A stretch of DNA of 63,304 bases, filler included. It is 12 parts of 12 records of this genome, joined end to end, with 100 filler letters (N's around TTAATTAATTAA, not from the genome) between each part and the next. Parts side by side here need not be neighbours in the genome. Positions count along the whole stretch, not along the records: positions 35,027 to 39,434 come from SRR7504441_10756; 11 more parts are not named here. One strand, given 5' to 3'. Both the position numbers and the translations under genes were made by a program. Below are positions 27 to 61,049 of this stretch, one piece after another (position 1 is the stretch's first letter; the number at the start of each line of letters is the position of its first letter). The notes under the pieces were generated by a model. That model saw only the letters and a program-made list of their open reading frames with translations. It did no database searches and was not told the origin of the DNA.

Positions 27-445
27 ATGTGCTGCCCGCTTCAATTGTACTTTGTGAACCTGGAATTCACGTCTGTGTGCCGGCTCGCTGCCCGTGATCC
101 CTGGGTGAGCGGTTCGGACAAGGCGGCCGCCCAGCAAAGGATCACCAACTACAAGAAAGAAGTCACGCGTCTGACCGAAGAGATCAAGGTCTCCGGGCTA
201 GAACGGCCTTCCATGAGCCCCGGCAGTACCAACGCAACGCGCGCAGCAACGCGGATAGCCAGGCTCTGTTTGTCGAACCTTTATCGCCAGGGGTACCCCT
301 CCGGGCGACCAGCGCTCACCCGCGAGGTGCAGAACCCGGCGGAAGAGAAGTCGCTGGTGTTTGAGCAGCAGCGCGCCAAGCTAGCCCGCGGTGCGTTGCA
401 ACCGCTGTTATTACTCAGTGTTAAGCCATCTATTAAGCAGATTAG
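27..445 (+). CDS. Possible VTI1-like SNARE N-terminal fragment (spliced, apparently truncated)
   Basis: After removing short GT-AG introns the frame reads ...GSDKAAAQQRITNYKKEVTRLTEEIK|YQRNARS...EQQRAKLAR, resembling the VTI1 Habc/linker. No SNARE motif or TM segment was found downstream. Confidence 0.3.
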
Positions 446-1146
446 GGATTGTCAGCTGGGAGAGTTAGCCAACTAGGTAATTTGTCATTGTAATAAAACG
501 CCTTCCCCTAAAAAAAGCCGCCGCCGGGCGGCTGTTGAACTGCCTGAACACGCCTGAACACTGACCCCCTGGCTCACGGGAACCATGGCCAGGGGTTTGG
601 CCAAAATGACATGAATTACATGCTGAAAATCATATCGAACTTGAGGCAAAAGTATGGCTGGGACAGCAGGGTATACTGTATCGGGTACTCCCATGGATCT
701 GCTTTCTGCCACAAGTTAGCCATCCGGCGTACGCGTGTCAAGCCGGATCTGGACCTCTGATGACGGTAGGACGCCGAGGTAATGGGTTTACGCTGTTGTA
801 CGGCATACCTAGCTAGTTCGAGGCTAGATTTAGGCCGTTGGAAAACGAAATAATTAGTGATCTGTCATGAACAGAAAAAGAAATTACAAGTAATAGTTTG
901 AGACTTGTGGATCCATGATCTAGATATCGTCGTCCTAATCGTCGTCTTAGTACATGTGTGGACTGATTACTACTAGATTACTACAACGTCAGGCGGTTAA
1001 CTCGCTGAGCTTGTGACGCAAAATCTATCGTATTGCTGTCAGATTTTTGTTGCCTATTCGCCATATTTGGCCTATGATTGTCAAGTACAGCCAAACGTGT
1101 CGTGCCGGTCTTCGTACCTTAATTTAAATTGAGGGTAACCCATACA

Positions 1147-2949
1147 TTATAATGCGTTGATCATTTCGCCATAGTCCTTCTCTCCGTACTTTTGGCGATC
1201 TTCATGAATCAGGTCGCATACCTTTTTGTGCCCCTCCCACGCCCCAACCTGGCACTCACGGCTACAGTACCTACCACCACGCCTCAGCAGCCGCCCACAG
1301 CCAGCCAGCCACCACTCGTTCTTGCACCGGCTGCACCGGTTGGTGGCCACATCGCCGCATTTTGCACACCTGGGCTCCTCCAGCAGCGAGTCGCAGTCGA
1401 ACTCCTTGTACCACGCGGCCATTTTGTTCATCTCGTCCCGGAAAGCCTCGTCGGTCTGGCTTAGAACCGTCGCCCTCATGTGTTCGGCCACCGCATCCCA
1501 GTCCTGATCCATCAGCCCTTCACGCATGGTAGCTACCTGCCTCCCCCGCTCGCCGCCGCCGCAGCCGGCCAGCTCGCCTGCTCCAGCACGAAAAAGCTCT
1601 TGTTGGCCGCCTCTGGTGCTTCGACCAGATTCAGCTCCTCTAGGGTTCGCTGCAAGTCAGCTGCAGTCGGCTCAGCAGCTGCAGCGGCCCCGGCGCACCG
1701 AGCACTGGCAGCTGATCGATCAGGGTCGCGTTGAAATACCGGCGGAGCATGAGCAGCGTGCTCTTGCGATGCGAGTTCAGGTCATACCTGCACAAACGCA
1801 CTGAGTACTAGGGCACGGACCGGCAGGCTCACTTGGCGCGCATGTTGTTGTCCATCACCAGGTTGTATACCGCCAGCCATACCTGGGCCTGGTACTTGTT
1901 GAGTCGCAGCGCGTCGTCCGCTGTCACTTCCTCCCATTTGTTTTCAATAAACCGCTGTCACACCCGTCACGGCAAGCTCACCGCTTTCGGGACACCTTAA
2001 TCACTCCCTCGGGGGTGCGGTGGTCCCACGGAGCGTTCTGGAGCAACGGCACCAGCTGCATCGGCACGTCGTTCGGGTTGATCAGCCTCGACATGACACT
2101 CATCTCCAGCCCATTCATATGGTCGGAGATAAACCTACGCTCAGCTCAGGACTGCGCACCTGGCCGCCCCACGCACCGCAGAATCGAGAGCGAGGTCATG
2201 CACACCGAGAACTCCACCGCGTTCTGCTTGGTGGCCAGGTCCTGCGGCCGGTCAGCCCCAGGCCTGCGCGCGCCGCACTGAGCCGCCACTGCCCTCGGCC
2301 GCCATCTCCTTGAGCTCATCCACTGAAAGCTTCTTGTGCGGCTCCTCGATCAGGCGGGTGCTCATGCCGTTCAGGTAGGTGCACTTGCGGGTGCAGTAGT
2401 CGGTGAGCTCCACCATCCCGAGCTCGCCCACCGCCTCGCAGGCCGCCAGCGAGAACAGGCTACACTCGAGCAGGTTGCAAAGCACCGCCTCGTGGTACAT
2501 CTGCCCGCCAGCTCGGCCTAGCCCCACCCGGCCGGCACCATCAGGTACGGCTTGATGTTGGACTTGGCGACCGCGAAGTCCTGCTGCAGCTTGGGCATGC
2601 AGCAGGCCTTCCAGCTCTCGATCAGCACCAGCTCGTGAACCAGCACCGGCAGCTTGTCGAACGAGATGAGCGCCTCCACAACGAATTCATCGGTCTGGCT
2701 GGCCACGTTGTGGTGCGCCTGCACGTTCAGCCTGCCCCGCCGGTCGGCCCGGCCAGTCGACGGTTCGAAACCGGTCGAGCGCCCGGTGCTGGTCGAGCCA
2801 GCTGCTCGAGCCGACCTCGAGCGGGGTGGTGGGCTCGAGCGCCTCGACCAGCCGCTCGGCCTCGTACACGTCCAGAACTCCGCCCGCGCCTGCCCACCGC
2901 CCGTGAGCCCACGGCGCCGGGTCCCGCCGCTCGACGCACCTGGCTGCAT
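1147..2949 (-). CDS. ZMYND10: Zinc finger MYND domain-containing protein 10 (axonemal dynein assembly factor), 10 short introns
   Basis: Spliced protein has LNVQAH...VEALISFDKLPVLVHELVLIESWK, YHEAVLCNLLE, ELTDYCTRK, QVWLAVYNL, LIDQLPVL and a C-terminal MYND finger (CAKC..[26 protein letters not shown]). Includes a GC-AG intron at 1537-1577. Confidence 0.93.
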
Positions 2950-9024: not shown

Positions 9025-10239
9025 ATGGCGGGGCTGGCAGCAGCAGCCCGGCAGCGGGCCACCGCCGTGTCGCTGCGCCAGCTGTTCGAGTTCGGCGGCA
9101 GCCCGCAGCCGGAGCAGCGCCTGCGGAATGCCCGGTTCCTGCTGCGGGAGCTGCCAATCAGGCTGGCCCAGCGGGTGCAGGAGCTCAAGTCGCTGCCGTA
9201 CGGGCTGGGCCAGACCGAGCAGGTGGGCAACGTGATCGGCTGGTACAAGAGCTACTTTGATCAGCTGTCCCGCGTCTCGCCCCCCGGCAGCCGGGCGGAG
9301 GAGCAGCAGTTCACGCAGCTGCTCGAGGAGATCCTGCAGGACCACAACGCGGTGATTCAGACGATGGCGCTCGGTGTGATCGAGATGCGCCAGCGCCTCC
9401 CGGGCGGGTACTCGCCGGATATGCGCACCGAGGTGGACAAGTGGCTCGACAGGTTCTTCATGGCACGGATCGGGCTGCGATTCCTCATCTCGCACCACAT
9501 TGCGGCCGACGCCAAGCGTGCTGGGTTCGCGGGGATTATCCAGGAGGCCTGCTCGCCACTCGCGGTGTGCGAGCGCGCAGCCGCCGACGCACGTTATGTG
9601 TGCGAAAAGCAGCTTGATGTGGCGCCGGAGATTGAATTCGAGGGCGTGGGCGAGACCGTTAGGTTCTGCTACGTGCCGATGCACCTGCACTACATTATGA
9701 CAGAGTTACTAAAGAACTCGCTGCGGGCGACGGTGGAGCGCCATCGCGGGCTGGAGGAGCCACCGCCTGTGCAGGTGGTGATAGCGCAGGGGCGGCACGA
9801 CATAACGATTAAGGTATCCGACCGAGGAGGGGGGATTCCGTTCACTCAGATGGACAACGTGTGGAGCTACGTGCACTCCACCGCCACCAACCCGAGCTCC
9901 GCATGGGCACGCCCTGCCCCGCAGACCAAACCTAAATGGCGCACGCCCTCAACAGAGATGGTGTCGTCGGGCTTGGAAACCCCATTAGCTGGTTTCGGAT
10001 GCGGCCTGCCGTTGAGTCGTCTGTATGCGAGATACTTTGGCGGAGGGCTGCAGCTGATGAGCATGGAGGGGTTCGGCACTGACAGCTACCTGCACCTGAA
10101 CCGGTGGCTGCCGCTAGGCTGCCGCCTAGGTGCTTTGCCTGAGTGAAATGGGTCCAGGTTAGGCAACCAATGCGAAAACTTGCCTCATGGCGTACTACAA
10201 AGCCCCTCGATGGGAGACTCATCCTTACAAGCACCTTAG
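9025..10239 (+). CDS. PDK: Pyruvate dehydrogenase kinase / BCKDK family kinase
   Basis: VSLRQLFEFG, FLLRELPIRLAQR, LDRFFMARIGLRFLISHH, ELLKNSLRAT, IKVSDRGGGIP, LAGFGCGLPLSRLYARYFGG. Intron 10104-10157 gives HLNRLGNQCENLP...stop at 10239. Confidence 0.93.
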
Positions 10240-10414
10240 CGCCTAGCGAAATGGTTCTATACTTAGTTACAAATACATTTAATACATTGGACCATGCTCG
10301 GATTCATGCAATTAGATTGAGCCAATCGCGCACGTCTACACAGTATGACATCTTGGTACAGGTCACACGTTCTATTCAACGAGAAAAGAGTCCATGAACG
10401 TTCGAGTCTAGCAC

Positions 10415-35026: not shown

Positions 35027-38000
35027 TGGAGACGCCTATGAGCCTCAACGATTACTACGAGCAGATCGGGAGGGCAGGCAGGGACGGGCACGAAGCGCAT
35101 GCACATACTGTCTTCTGCTTGCAAGACTGGAGCACATTTAGTAACGTAATTAACTACAATCGGCAGTGTGACTCTGCAACCAAACTAAAAGCTGAGCAGG
35201 ACTTTGCTGCAATGCTCAGATTTCTGCTCTGCTCCGATGTGTGCAGGCACCGTTACTGTGAAGACGCTGTCAGCGATTTCAAGCCGCAGCAGGAGCGGTG
35301 CGGGTCGTCTTGTGACAACTGCCTCGCCTACTTCGAACAGCCGGTTGGGCACAAAGATGTGGAGAATATCACAGAGCGGGTCCGGAGAGGGTTTGACGAG
35401 CTGCTGTCCAAATGGCAGAAGGCGGAGTCGTTCAATCCCAAGGAGTGTTTCGAGGGAATACCCGGCCCTATGAAGGAGCAGGTGCTGAGGGTGCTCCAGT
35501 ACGTGCTCAGACTGATCGAGAGGAACGGAGACTTGTACAGGCCGAGCGGGCTCACCGCGCAGGCCATCCGGACCTTGGAGCAGCATGCTTTCTACATTGA
35601 GCGCGCTGTCGAATCTGATGACTGTTTTGTGAGCGAAGACTGGTTCGACCCTAGAGTGATAGAGACCAAGGAGCCAGAAGGCCAGAATTGGGTACTGTCA
35701 TGGGCGTACGAGCACAGGGAGAGGGGGGGGTGGGTGCTGTATTTTCCGGATTCTGACGAGTATGAAGGATTGCCTAACCAGGACGAAAAGAAGGCAATCG
35801 GTGGGATGTTCCAGTGGAAGGATGGCAAGCAGCTGCTAGATCAGGACGGCAAGACGGTCGAATGGCGCGAGATCATGTGCCCGTACGAGAAGAGTAGAGC
35901 CGACAAGATCAAGGGTAATGAGCTTCTGCTGCAGCAACTCGATCTGGTCACTGGACCGGACGAGGCTCAAGCGCTCGATGACCTTTCAAACCACAGTCAG
36001 CTCACAGTGCACCAGCCGGATGAAGCAACTGAGAAAGCTCCATCGCAGGAGATGGGTGCAGAGGCGTTTGCTGAACCGATGAAAACGCGTGCAGTGACGA
36101 TTGAGAGCCGAGAGCACATGGATGGACCTCCTCTGGACGATTGTCTGCCTGGGATGGTTCACGGGAACGATCTGGCGTTTGAGGAACGGCACTGCGACCA
36201 TACCGGGTGCGCTACTATATAATTATCATGATAGCGCCGCTGATGAGGGACAGGTGTATTTTGAAGCGAGGCCATGATGGTAATCACATGTACCGGCCAA
36301 AGAGCGTTGGGTCTTGCTTGGTACCAGCTGGTGACGAGCCTGACGGTATCTGTAGGCTGCCGTTTGAGCTGCGGCTGGAGATCCTGGCCTGCATGCTGGC
36401 CGTTGGATACAGCCATTGGAGCCAGCTGAATGCAACCTTGCCAGGCCTATTGGAAGCCATTATCGACAAGGAGTTTCACAGCGGGGCTGCTGCTGGCTAC
36501 TTTAACGCTAAGCACGGGGCGGTGGTCGATGCAGCTGGCTGGGCGCGTCTGCAGGAATGGAAATCGGAGCCAGGCAGGTGTTACACGTTCAACGGTTCCA
36601 TCAGCAGATCTGACCGCGGCTTGCGCCTGGAGATCACGGCGCCGATGGTGTCCAAGCAGAAGCGACAATACCGGCAGTATAGCTGTGGAAGGTTCCTGGT
36701 TCTCACTGTGTTCCGTGAAGGAATGGAGAGCTGTCTGACTAAACTCCAGCGCTTTGGCGAAGAGGGCCTCTCAGTGGCTGGTCGGACCTACGAGTTGCTT
36801 TCAGTAGCTTCAAAGAGTGGCGACCACCGCGACGAGCGGAGTACTGAGACGGCTATGGGCACTCTGCGGATGTTTGCACGGGACGGCCCCGGGCTCAGCT
36901 CGGTCAGGGTGAGCGAGATCCACGAGTGGCACTTCCCCGCGAGCGCCCGAGGCCAACAGCTGAGTATGTCCAAGTTTCTGAAGCGACTTGACCTGAGCAA
37001 ATCGGACGCGGAGCCCTCGTGTGTTGTGAGCGACTACGAAGTGATCCCGGAGCTGATGGCGCAGTCAGATGGTGCGAGCCAGGTGTGCATGGAGGCGGAC
37101 GAGATGCTGGACGGCTGTGCGCCGTGCTCCAAGTACCAGATGCAGCAGATTGTGGCCGGGCTTCATCAAGACTCTGAACTTCGGAAGCAGTTTGAGGACA
37201 GCCGTGGGAATATTAATATCTCTGAATCGTTGCCCTCGTGTGCCCAGTTCAGGATGGGCGGCTTCAAGGGGGTGCTCTACGTCGACCACAGCCTGCCCAA
37301 GTCTTATCCTTGGACGTTCCGAGAGTCTCAAGAGAAGATCAAGAGGCTTTCTTCCAAGCAGATGCCTTGCACCGAAGAGCAGCAAAAGATCGAGGTCAAC
37401 AAGTTTGGTTTCTGCAAACGAGACGCGAACCTCAATGCATCCATGATTCAGGTGCTCACTGCCCCTATATACCACACAGTACACAGTATACTCTATACAG
37501 TAATAGTAGTAGTAGTCTACAGTAGTAGTCTACAGTAGCAGTGCTCATCTATGATTCAGGTGCTGACGTACAATGAGACGAGCGACAAGGGTCGAGCTCT
37601 CAAGCAAGAGATTCTAAACATGATGCAGAAACACATTGAAAAGCTCTGCAGTGCACTGGCCAGCGAGGCAGAGGCACGTGAACTGATCGGCGAGGCTCAC
37701 TTCAGCTCTGTTTCTTGCTCTGGAATGGAAGGCCAGGCCGCCCAGATGCTTTTGAACGGTTTCAAGATCGCAGAGTGCCCTTTCTTGTTCCATACTATCA
37801 AGCAGCTCGTCATCTCTAAACTCAAGCTGCTCAGAGAAAAGTTCCACCTGCCTGTGTATCAAGCTCAGACCGTCACAATCGTCGCCGATGCGAACGGCGA
37901 GCTAGAACAAAATGAATGCTTCCTGCGCACCAATGACGGCACGATTGAAGGCGAGGTGTTGCTCAAGAGAGATCCGTGTTACCACCCCGGGAATCTCCTC

Positions 38001-39084
38001 AAGCTCACAGCGGTCGACAGGCCTGAGCTGAACCAGCGATACCGCGGACGGAATCTGCTAGTTCTTTCGTCAAAAGGGCCTCGCAGGCTGGCGGATTACC
38101 TGTCGGAAGGAGACTATGACGGCGACATGGCGTGGGCGTGCTGGAATAGTCAGATCGTGGACCACTTTGAGCCGTGTGCGCCGCTTGATCACCAGCCGGC
38201 GCCCGAGCGGTCGCATTTTGTCCCGGCCGAAGCGTCGGAGATGCAGCGCTTCATGATGAAGTTCTTTGTTGATGTGATTCGCAACTCTAACATAGGTATC
38301 ATCGAACGACAGCTGCGCAGAGTGGCAGATAAAGAGGGCCCGGATTCGGAATCAGCGACTGCATTGGCTAAAGGGTGCCTGTTGGCCGTGGACGTGCCGG
38401 ACTGCCCCGTGCTAGTGGATGTGCCCGTTTGCAACAACTGGCAGCCGCACTGGCATCTGAGTAAAGACGGGCCCGGCAAGCAACAGTCCACAAGGACGCT
38501 CGGCCTGCTAGCCGACATGCTCGATAACGAGTTGGAGCGGCTCCGGGGGCTCAAGCCACCAGATTCAAAGTTGGACAAGGAGCTTGACACGGGCGACTTT
38601 GGCAAGTTTAAAGGTGAAGCAAAGCTGCTGCTCAAGCGGCTCCAGGAACACTACAAGGCCTCCAGAGAGAGGAAGCTTCCGACCAGCGCGCTGCGGTCAG
38701 AGCAGATGAAGATGGTCGATGAATGGCGGCCGCTTGGCCATCAAACCGACCACCCGCTGCACGACACACGGCTGAGCCTGGCTGCAGCGGCGTACAGAAT
38801 CACAGCTGACGGGCTTCAGAGTATCAGAGATAGCTATTCTTTCACTGACAATTACTCTTTCGAGCGGCCGGTGGCGCTCTGCACCTGCTGGCTGCCGTTT
38901 TTCAGGTGGATGCTGCTTGAATGTGCCTGACGTGGAGTGCTGCAGGTGGCTTTGTCGGCTGAAGGCCGATGCGCGCAGTCAGGCTCAGGGGCAAGGTCAT
39001 TTATTATTATTAATTATCATTTTATTTACTGTTTACACAGGTCCAGCGCCGACTTTGCTCAGCTCTCTTGCTAGGAAGGATTAG
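35027..39084 (+). CDS. RecQ helicase (C-terminal part) fused to a QDE-1-like cellular RNA-dependent RNA polymerase (5' end cut)
   Basis: PMSLNDYYEQIGRAGRDG and CRH...CGSSCDNC (RecQ motif VI/RQC), then RdRP motifs MLDGC, AQFRMGGFKGVL, RESQEK, NLN, GELEQNECFL, RDPCYHPG, LADYLSEGDYDGDMAWACW, WLCRLKA. GT-AG introns 36207-36253, 37452-37559, 38906-38945 and 38996-39040 give one frame of about 1270 aa. Confidence 0.82.
37438..37564. repeat. Insertion flanked by a 19-bp direct repeat that forms intron 37452-37559
   Basis: CATCCATGATTCAGGTGCT (37438-37456) vs CATCTATGATTCAGGTGCT (37546-37564). The AT-rich interior is bounded by CACTGC...GCAGTG. Confidence 0.8.
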
Positions 39085-39360
39085 CCGCCTAGGGAGGCAT
39101 CGACACCGCGCAATTCGGCACCACCCGGCTGTCTCTAATTCTTTAAGTGTGCCTCCAGTCATTACTTCGGTTTGGTGATGAACCGATGATCGTATTTCCG
39201 TATTTCCCTATTAAATTTTAGTTGAACGCGTCAGAGTCCGGTCGACTATTGGGAGAAGTAGCTATATAGTACTCGTATGTAATTATTAGGCCGAGCTTGA
39301 ATTTGGCTCGCAAATTGGCGATCGTTGGCGAATGGATGTAAGTAAGGACTTAGGTATTAA

Positions 39361-39434
39361 AAGTATTGAGTACAGGTAAAGTATTGAGTACAAGTATTGA
39401 GAACGAGTAAAGTATACATGAGAGTATACATGAA
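39361..39434. repeat. Short degenerate AT-rich tandem repeat at contig end
   Basis: AAGTATTGAG x3 and AGTATACATGA x2. Confidence 0.6.
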
Positions 39435-60161: not shown

Positions 60162-61049
60162 ATGCGCAGCGCCATGTGCACGCTGCGGCAGCTGTTCGAT
60201 CGGAGCTCGTGCACCTACACCTACCTGCTTATGGACAATGCATCTAGGCAGGCGGTGCTGATCGACCCAGTGCTCGAGCTGGTAGATCGCGACATGGAGG
60301 CCATCACCGGGCTCGGGGCTGAGCTTGCCGTTGTCGCCAACACCCACGGTGCGTCCGCTGGGCGGCCCAGCTCACCGTGGCCAGTGCACGCCGACCACAT
60401 CACCGGATCGGGCAGAGCGTGGTCAGCGCGGCCAGCCAGGAGTGCAGAGCGTGGTCAGCGCGGCCAGCCAGGCCGTGGCGGACAAAGCGGTCGGACCTGG
60501 GGACACGATACAATTCGGCTCGCGATCGCTGGAGGTCCGGGCCACGCCCGGGCACACGGAGGGCTGCCTGACATACGTGCTCGACGACCAGAGCCTGGCC
60601 TTCACGGGCGATGCCGTGCTCATCCGAGGGTGCGGCCGGACTGATTTCCAGGGCGGCGACCCCGCAGTGCTATTTGATTCCGTCTGGTCGCAGGCCGGCA
60701 CCCGACTCGGGGCGGGGCTGACGGGCCGGGGCAGATCTTTAGCCTGCCAGATGCCACTGTGCTGTATCCTGCGCATGACTACTCTGGCAGGAGCTGGACT
60801 ACGGTTGCAGAGGAGAAGCAGTACAATCCGCGACTGAGCAAGAGCCGGGAGGAGTTCATCGAGCTAATGAACAAACGGTTCGACGGCTCGTCATATCCTG
60901 GGAAGATCGATGCGAGCGTACCTGCCAATATGGTATGCGGAGTTTTTGAGGGCGGGCTCTTTGAAGGCACGCCGGTGCCGCACCCGGGAGGGTTTCAATG
61001 GAGGCCGCGGGATGACGTCAAGCTTGAGACCGTGGGCGCCGCGGTCTAA
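60162..61049 (+). CDS. ETHE1: Persulfide dioxygenase ETHE1 (metallo-beta-lactamase fold), with a local duplication/frameshift
   Basis: [88 protein letters not shown] intron at 60694-60734. Confidence 0.92.

Follow-up and report, generated by a model that had tools for sequence, protein, structure and literature searches.

Introduction

[quoted passage not shown] According to the available text of PMC2950127, QDE-1 is both an RdRP and a stronger single-stranded DNA (ssDNA)-dependent RNA polymerase, its output of double-stranded RNA (dsRNA) is promoted by RPA, and the QDE-1/RPA interaction requires QDE-3; the background given in an earlier note on the DNA studied here agrees with this account. 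From the same text, what has so far connected a RecQ helicase with an RdRP is genetics and co-immunoprecipitation in one fungus. Here we analysed a stretch of 63,304 bases (the window), made of 13 contigs joined by runs of N around TTAATTAATTAA spacers. One of its contigs (35027-39434; 4408 bp, GC 0.54) encodes members of the same two enzyme families, here probably in one predicted chain, and the organism, unlike Neurospora, is not a fungus by gene content.

Fusions of a helicase to an RdRP have been published for Dictyostelium, peronosporomycete oomycetes, Hydra and Nematostella, where a DEAD-box plus Helicase_C region of the Dicer-like type is joined to an RdRP of the RDR-gamma subgroup (available text of PMC4791657). 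Like the locus in the window, these proteins have an N-terminal superfamily 2 (SF2) helicase and a C-terminal RdRP of family PF05183. They are set apart by description: the available text of PMC4791657 calls the helicases Dicer-like and leaves a RecQ Zn module unmentioned, whereas the helicase tail in the window has the RecQ-specific Zn-binding subdomain. RecQ helicases also score on the DEAD and Helicase_C Pfam families, so the published label is compatible with a RecQ relationship, and the domain tables of that paper may bear on the type of helicase in the published fusions. The earlier note knew of the Dictyostelium proteins and held the combination to be possibly new. Helicase-RdRP fusions are in fact known more widely, and only the RecQ type survives as a candidate novelty: a RecQ-RdRP fusion was not found in a literature search made mostly at the level of titles and abstract openings, without supplements. 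If the fusion is real, its novelty would lie in the RecQ type of the helicase and in nothing else. The words helicase and RecQ are absent from the available portion of PMC6396948.

A RecQ tail and a complete RdRP in one gene model

The best-supported gene model for the contig, known from its DNA sequence alone, is a single plus-strand gene that probably encodes one polypeptide of at least 1248 amino acids, with a RecQ helicase part ahead of the RdRP. It consists of three exons (A, 35029..36206; B, 36254..37451; C, 37560..38930) separated by a candidate intron of 47 nucleotides (36207..36253) and by intron 2 of 108 nucleotides (37452..37559). Both domains, their order and common strand, the zero spacing between them, the intron-like signals and the correct phase are read directly in the DNA.

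Exon A encodes the C-terminal part of a RecQ-family helicase, its 5' end cut by the contig end. Its frame-1 open reading frame (ORF; 35029-36219, 397 amino acids) ends at a TAA at 36220-36222, and over the 392 codons of the exon there is no stop in this frame, against 12 and 24 stops in the two others. As the earlier note had said, the contig opens with helicase motif VI (35053-35088; ...YYEQIGRAGRDG) and a four-cysteine Zn-binding subdomain (35242-35322). In an alignment with 65 search matches, the motif (Q-x-x-G-R-A-G-R, where the second RecA lobe ends) is invariant or nearly so at Q11, G14, R15, A16, G17, R18, D19 and G20, and the cysteines C72, C91, C95 and C98 of the RecQ Zn subdomain are conserved. 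A Pfam search, one of the checks that the earlier note had proposed, detected two families: PF05183 (below) and, in the RecQ part, RecQ_Zn_bind (PF16124) at E 0.0017 over profile positions 2-66 of 66, with 19.5 bits under a curated cut-off of 25. Searching solved structures in the PDB by sequence gave 39 matches at E<=1, most of them spanning residues 3-100 of the RecQ ORF; WRN, RecQ, BLM and RECQL1, 4 and 5 made up the top 30 and 32 of the 39 overall. When the ORF was scanned with HMMER against 1.84 billion representative proteins (no self-match among the results), 72 of the 74 matches fell on residues ~1-150, with a best E of 2.7e-6, and all seven of those 72 proteins that were scanned with Pfam have helicase and/or RecQ_Zn_bind domains.

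An AlphaFold2 (AF2) model of the RecQ ORF, built on 66 sequences, was confident over residues 1-110 (pLDDT 82-95), where the Foldseek PDB matches listed were all RecQ-family helicases. In the structure modelling that the earlier note had asked for, this part superposed on WRN at 1.9-3.2 Å over ~100-110 columns (for example, a root-mean-square deviation of 1.9 Å over 107 columns). The Foldseek E-values are weak, 2e-3 at best, because the RecQ piece is short. The RQC winged-helix and HRDC domains are not universal among RecQ helicases, and a protein that misses them may still be a member of the family. Neither was found in the RecQ ORF with Pfam (PF09382 and PF00570, no match at E<=10) or after the Zn module in the model, which has helices only over residues 110-195 (helical region, ~35314-35613), then a poorly modelled module (~35596-35967) and, over residues 316-397, an acidic tail predicted to be disordered (~35974-36206 within the exon). 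By sequence matches and structure model alike, the predicted product of exon A is the tail of a RecQ helicase.

The poorly modelled module is lineage-specific and, at ~70-125 amino acids, has an AF2 fold without confidence. It is matched in two unannotated metagenome proteins, P0012 (E 1.1e-5, query residues 190-313) and P0017 (E 2.6e-5, query residues 179-266). Read from their sequences, both hold the module in tandem copies. Each is a singleton without a name, and P0017 shows in addition a weak AP2 match below threshold.

After the junction, the predicted product is unambiguously a complete eukaryotic RdRP. Exon B starts with a leader of ~126 amino acids without a known domain, followed from ~36633 by the N-terminal half of the RdRP; an F-box-like motif suspected by eye in the leader had no Pfam match at E<=10. 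Exon C holds the C-terminal half and a C-terminal extension of ~130 amino acids. PF05183 matches twice, at 36255-37460 (profile 8-253 of 582, E 7e-28, 98.1 bits) and at 37539-38927 (profile 249-580 of 582, E 5.6e-52, 177.7 bits), each against a cut-off of 23.8. As the profile positions abut across it, the boundaries of intron 2 are fixed; this intron is in frame, with GTGCTC...CAG followed by G, a stop at 37536-37538 and a GC content of 0.41. The catalytic D-b-D-G-D loop is present as DYDGD at 38112-38126, and alignment to the QDE-1 structures (2j7n/7y7p) bore out the earlier note's statement that its Tyr is the QDE-1 variant. QDE-1 is also the best match of the RdRP among solved structures (E 3.4e-15). 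The loop, LSEGDYDGDMAWACW, is identical to that of QDE-1, LSGGDYDGDMAWVCW, at 13 of 15 positions and thus resembles it almost residue for residue, including the Tyr; the QDE-1 alignment is confined to query residues 66-209, with low identity outside the catalytic core.

We made a quick RdRP tree from 64 rows, after 19 short rows had been dropped. One branch (SH-aLRT 95) split 10 DYDGD rows from 54 DLDGD rows, and the window RdRP, on a long branch, fell on the DYDGD side together with the Aspergillus clavatus RdRP (P0004) and two metagenome loci, L077 and L020. L077 was paired with the window RdRP, both being long branches. The two loci are the nearest to the window by the tree or by an N-terminal match, at 23-35% identity. 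We use the label QDE-1-type on the grounds of the loop, the PDB ranking and this quick tree, which carries no labelled RDR alpha, beta and gamma references.

The earlier note had run the gene to 39084. The RdRP frame stops earlier, at the TGA at 38928-38930. The TAG at 39082-39084 is not reached by any splice compatible with the frame as well as the consensus: a third intron from GT 38907 to AG 39040 (134 nucleotides) would arrive in the wrong frame, and the region has no signal in GC at third codon positions (GC3). The 3' flank from 38931 to the contig end at 39434 is rich in AT islands, lacks a frame-specific GC3 signal and resembles the AT-rich spacers after other long ORFs of the window; it contains a short tandem repeat at 39358-39415.

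The junction carries a candidate intron of the local type

The RdRP-frame ORF opens at 36183 and overlaps the RecQ-frame stop at 36220, so there is no intergenic space between the two frames. The earlier note had placed this stop inside a 47-nucleotide GT..GCTGAT..CAG stretch, and all of these elements are in the sequence. The candidate is a phase-2 intron (36207..36253, plus strand; GTGCGC...GCTGAT...ACAG, then G) whose AT-rich core holds the TAA and whose CTGAT branch motif places an A at -11; its GC content is 0.47, against 0.55-0.57 in the flanking exons. Its removal gives the join HTG-CILKR in the RdRP frame with no stop, as predicted, and leaves 3744 coding bases, or 1248 codons with a single terminal stop. 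Just beyond other long ORFs in the window lie AT-rich stretches of 90 to ~370 nucleotides, while at the junction only the 30-nucleotide intron core is AT-rich. Codon usage of the RecQ part correlates with that of the two RdRP exons at r 0.65 and 0.75, and the exons correlate with each other at 0.68.

Donor, branch and acceptor of the candidate match short introns inferred in other genes of the window, as the earlier note had supposed for the genome at large. In an ETHE1-like gene, an intron of 36 nucleotides (GTGCGT...CAG, 60349-60384) corresponds to a 12-residue gap against human ETHE1 inside a metal-binding motif, and a GC-AG intron of 41 nucleotides (60694-60734) restores the frame and keeps the human spacing of two conserved blocks. 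Three introns mend frame breaks in a WD40 gene on the minus strand: one of 37 nucleotides with a GTGCCG donor (13536-13500), one of 40 with GTGCCT and CTCAT (13310-13271) and one of 37 with GTGGTT and a GCTGAT that places its A at -11 as in the candidate (12808-12772). All three have a CTSAY-like motif ~11 nucleotides before the end and a CAG acceptor followed by G; they were picked among listed candidates by ORF continuity and repeat motifs, an inference in itself.

Across the bin, the inferred introns are very short (36-47 nucleotides, perhaps also 28-31), with GTGC or GTGG donors and at least one GC-AG case. The shortest class stems from the ETHE1-like gene, where a 28-nucleotide sequence stands twice in tandem (60412-60471) and shifts the frame; only a GC- or GT-AG splice of 28-31 nucleotides keeps the protein intact, with ambiguous boundaries.

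We wrote these signals as a composite pattern, GGTG-N18-48-CTSAY-N6-10-CAGG, and compared the window with 100 dinucleotide-preserving shuffles of it. The window has 11 occurrences of the pattern where 2.55 +/- 1.48 are expected, and none of the 100 shuffles reaches 11. Five of the 11 sites join ORFs that need splicing, among which the candidate joins by far the longest, of 392 and 427 codons. Using the shuffle rate, we calculate a probability of ~5e-4 that such a motif would fall on the ~70-nucleotide junction in the right phase. A blind ORF-joining scan of all GT/GC-AG pairs returned more than 16,000 candidates and was uninformative in this GC-rich DNA.

Another sample contains a relative of the contig that is ~92% identical. 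Among three small contig pieces from that sample only one was informative, a contig of 599 nucleotides that spans 36233-36800. Compared in the RdRP frame, its differences amount to 18 synonymous and 17 non-synonymous changes of codons, none of them to a stop; read in the other two frames, the same substitutions give 4 and 8 synonymous changes and create 4 and 3 stops. One synonymous first-position change is at 36267, which is 13 nucleotides past the acceptor and still ahead of the ATG at 36288. By this pattern of substitutions, frame 0 reads as coding from at least 36267. The 34 nucleotides from 36233 to 36266, which include the branch site and the acceptor, are unchanged in the relative.

Searches for a second example

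No second RecQ-RdRP fusion emerged from our searches. The N-terminal RdRP half had no match among proteins of similar length, and the C-terminal half had two among longer proteins, from a spider and an Aspergillus. The linker ORF found only two weak bacterial RecQ matches among longer proteins, and in the scan of 1.84 billion representatives the linker was touched by P0012 and P0017 only. In the Protein Atlas, nothing came up for the linker (score 0.75), and the RdRP gave RdRP-type clusters only, with no helicase set. A first metagenome scan for RdRP relatives found none, and a second, alignment-based one gave 80 distant RdRP loci, beside which RecQ was looked for by tblastn with four RecQ proteins and the RecQ tail of the window. 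This gave one RecQ-like gene, in L072, a locus that carries a DYDGD-type RdRP (10001-10405). L072 is not a fusion: its RecQ-like gene (420-1782, minus strand) lies ~8.3 kb upstream on the opposite strand, and its presence near the RdRP is probably a coincidence.

A separate observation concerns the polymerase. When 37560-38927 was looked up in the Atlas by language-model features, the nearest clusters were of proteins of ~505-514 amino acids, with PF05183 on 20-28% of the members and few recorded taxa, mostly phage (Uroviricota) or bacterial. We note these clusters as a lead, rather than as evidence, towards relatives of eukaryotic RdRPs in phages.

Weighing one gene against other explanations

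Several observations weigh against a single fused gene. The contig begins at motif VI, and helicase motifs 0 and I-V, if the gene has them, would lie beyond its end. In the last ~95 codons of exon A, GC3 in the RecQ frame is 0.54, against 0.62-0.87 in the preceding windows over 35207-35926, and another frame is higher; the frame plot is ambiguous there, and the coding status of this part depends on its having 0 stops where the other frames have 2 and 6. A frame-restoring pair alone means little, as 189 GT/GC-AG pairs keep the junction frame open. The composite pattern was written after the candidate and two other introns were known, so that only 8 of its 11 matches count as independent, a number still above the 2.55 expected. 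To the same side of the balance belong the available start codons, the standalone relatives and the break in the relative's contig, each of which speaks for one of the explanations that follow.

In one of these, which we consider unlikely, the contig holds two tandem genes: RecQ would end at the TAA at 36220, and the RdRP would start at an in-frame ATG at 36228, 36243 or 36288, transcribed either from a promoter within RecQ coding sequence or as part of a polycistronic precursor. Of these start codons, the one at 36243 falls within the 34 nucleotides that are identical in the relative, whose adjoining upstream sequence is unrelated and AT-rich. L077 (1226 amino acids) and L020 (995 amino acids) are single uninterrupted RdRP ORFs with PF05183 as their only Pfam family and no helicase, and the domain of L020 starts at residue 101, after a leader of ~100 amino acids, which makes a separate RdRP gene structurally possible. 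For 26 of the metagenome RdRP loci the upstream sequence is longer than 3 kb, and in none of these does it hold a RecQ on the same strand. Yet tandem genes would leave only 5 to 65 nucleotides between stop and start, against the AT-rich stretches of 90 to ~370 nucleotides after other long ORFs, and at the junction a full donor, branch and acceptor of the local type stand in the only phase able to connect the two frames. The synonymous change at 36267 suggests, moreover, that coding begins upstream of the ATG at 36288. Trans-splicing left no sign that we noticed, although no search aimed at it was made.

Still less probable, in our estimate, is an assembly chimera, in which unrelated genes, two in number and from one genome or from similar ones, both have a short AT-rich intron and were joined within these introns. 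The metagenome bin is fragmented, with the contig as one of its short pieces, and it may be mixed, given the different codon usage of its polyketide synthase (PKS) contig (r 0.18-0.32, GC3 0.49). In the only independent overlapping contig, similarity ends at 36233, inside the candidate intron's AT-rich core; 31 further bases are known, and they are unrelated and AT-rich. Divergence of the intron, another context upstream and a mis-join are equally good readings of this break: the overlapping contig is itself only ~92% identical and ends 31 nucleotides on, and fast divergence of an intron explains the break as well as a chimera does. A random join would, however, be expected to hit the correct phase only one time in three, the resulting intron is of typical length (47 nucleotides; others 36-47 and 108), and the codon usage of the RecQ and RdRP halves agrees. 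We think it very improbable that the locus is a decayed or mobile-element-associated copy whose frames are remnants with no functional fused enzyme. A second copy, ~92% identical, does exist in another sample, and intron 2 is flanked by a 22-nucleotide direct repeat in an insertion-like manner; but the three exons are open over 1248 codons, the DYDGD loop, motif VI and all four Zn cysteines are preserved, and among the differences from the relative synonymous changes are enriched and stops are absent. With two genes or a mis-join, an ordinary RecQ beside an ordinary QDE-1-like RdRP would remain. The fusion proposed in the earlier note thus keeps both domains, the QDE-1-like loop, the typical intron, the phase and the missing intergenic space on its side, and lacks a second instance in the searches made.

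Proposed mechanism and significance

If the two parts form a single RecQ-RdRP protein, its predicted architecture would begin with a RecQ-family helicase, visible here as motif VI, the Zn subdomain, the helical region and the lineage-specific module, and an acidic disordered tether of ~80 amino acids would link it to the polymerase. The 47-nucleotide intron that carries the only stop would be spliced out, and the frame would run on into the QDE-1-type RdRP. By analogy with Neurospora QDE-3 and QDE-1, the helicase may open duplex DNA at repeats or at damaged or recombining sites, and the tethered polymerase could then copy the exposed single strand into aberrant RNA and further into dsRNA for Dicer. 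That the helicase feeds ssDNA to the polymerase is a reading by the same analogy. The helicase might also strip RNA from the DNA template, a step aided by RPA in Neurospora.

As the only stop of the RecQ frame lies inside the 47-nucleotide intron, its retention or removal would switch between a RecQ helicase and a helicase-polymerase. We put forward only tentatively, as a rather doubtful proposal, that a non-fungal marine protist has both quelling initiators in one enzyme that unwinds, transcribes and makes dsRNA, with this intron as a switch between plain RecQ and the fused form. If the fusion is real, the locus would be independent Rosetta-stone evidence, from an unrelated lineage, that RecQ and RdRP work on DNA as a single physical unit. 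DNA-templated synthesis of aberrant RNA would then seem older or more widespread than quelling, and the coupling of unwinding to RNA synthesis could be tested with one recombinant protein.

Source organism and other features of the window

The only public run that shares words with the contig is a seawater metagenome. Other contigs of the window encode an IFT80/172/WDR35/WDR19 TPR domain (E 1.6e-62), WD40 propeller exons, an inositol-phosphatase-type Exo_endo_phos2 domain, EF-hands, a GH5 cellulase, a modular PKS and the ETHE1-like persulfide dioxygenase. As these eukaryotic genes include one for intraflagellar transport (IFT), the source is read as a flagellated protist. By gene content, namely the flagellar IFT gene, the modular PKS and the introns of 36-47 nucleotides, it is a marine protist outside the fungi.

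Intron 2 of the RdRP is bounded by a direct repeat of 22 nucleotides (37438-37459 and 37546-37567; 91% identical) whose spacing equals the length of the intron. Each copy contains CAG/GTGCT, and a 13-nucleotide tandem duplication lies inside the intron (37508-37533). From these repeats, the intron looks like an insertion with a target-site duplication, or a duplication.

The PKS contig (14696-20209) encodes a modular type I PKS (KS, ACP, KR) on the minus strand in two long ORFs. It differs from the rest of the window in composition (GC 0.51, GC3 0.49) and in codon usage (r 0.18-0.45 to other genes), and may be another organism's or a foreign gene.

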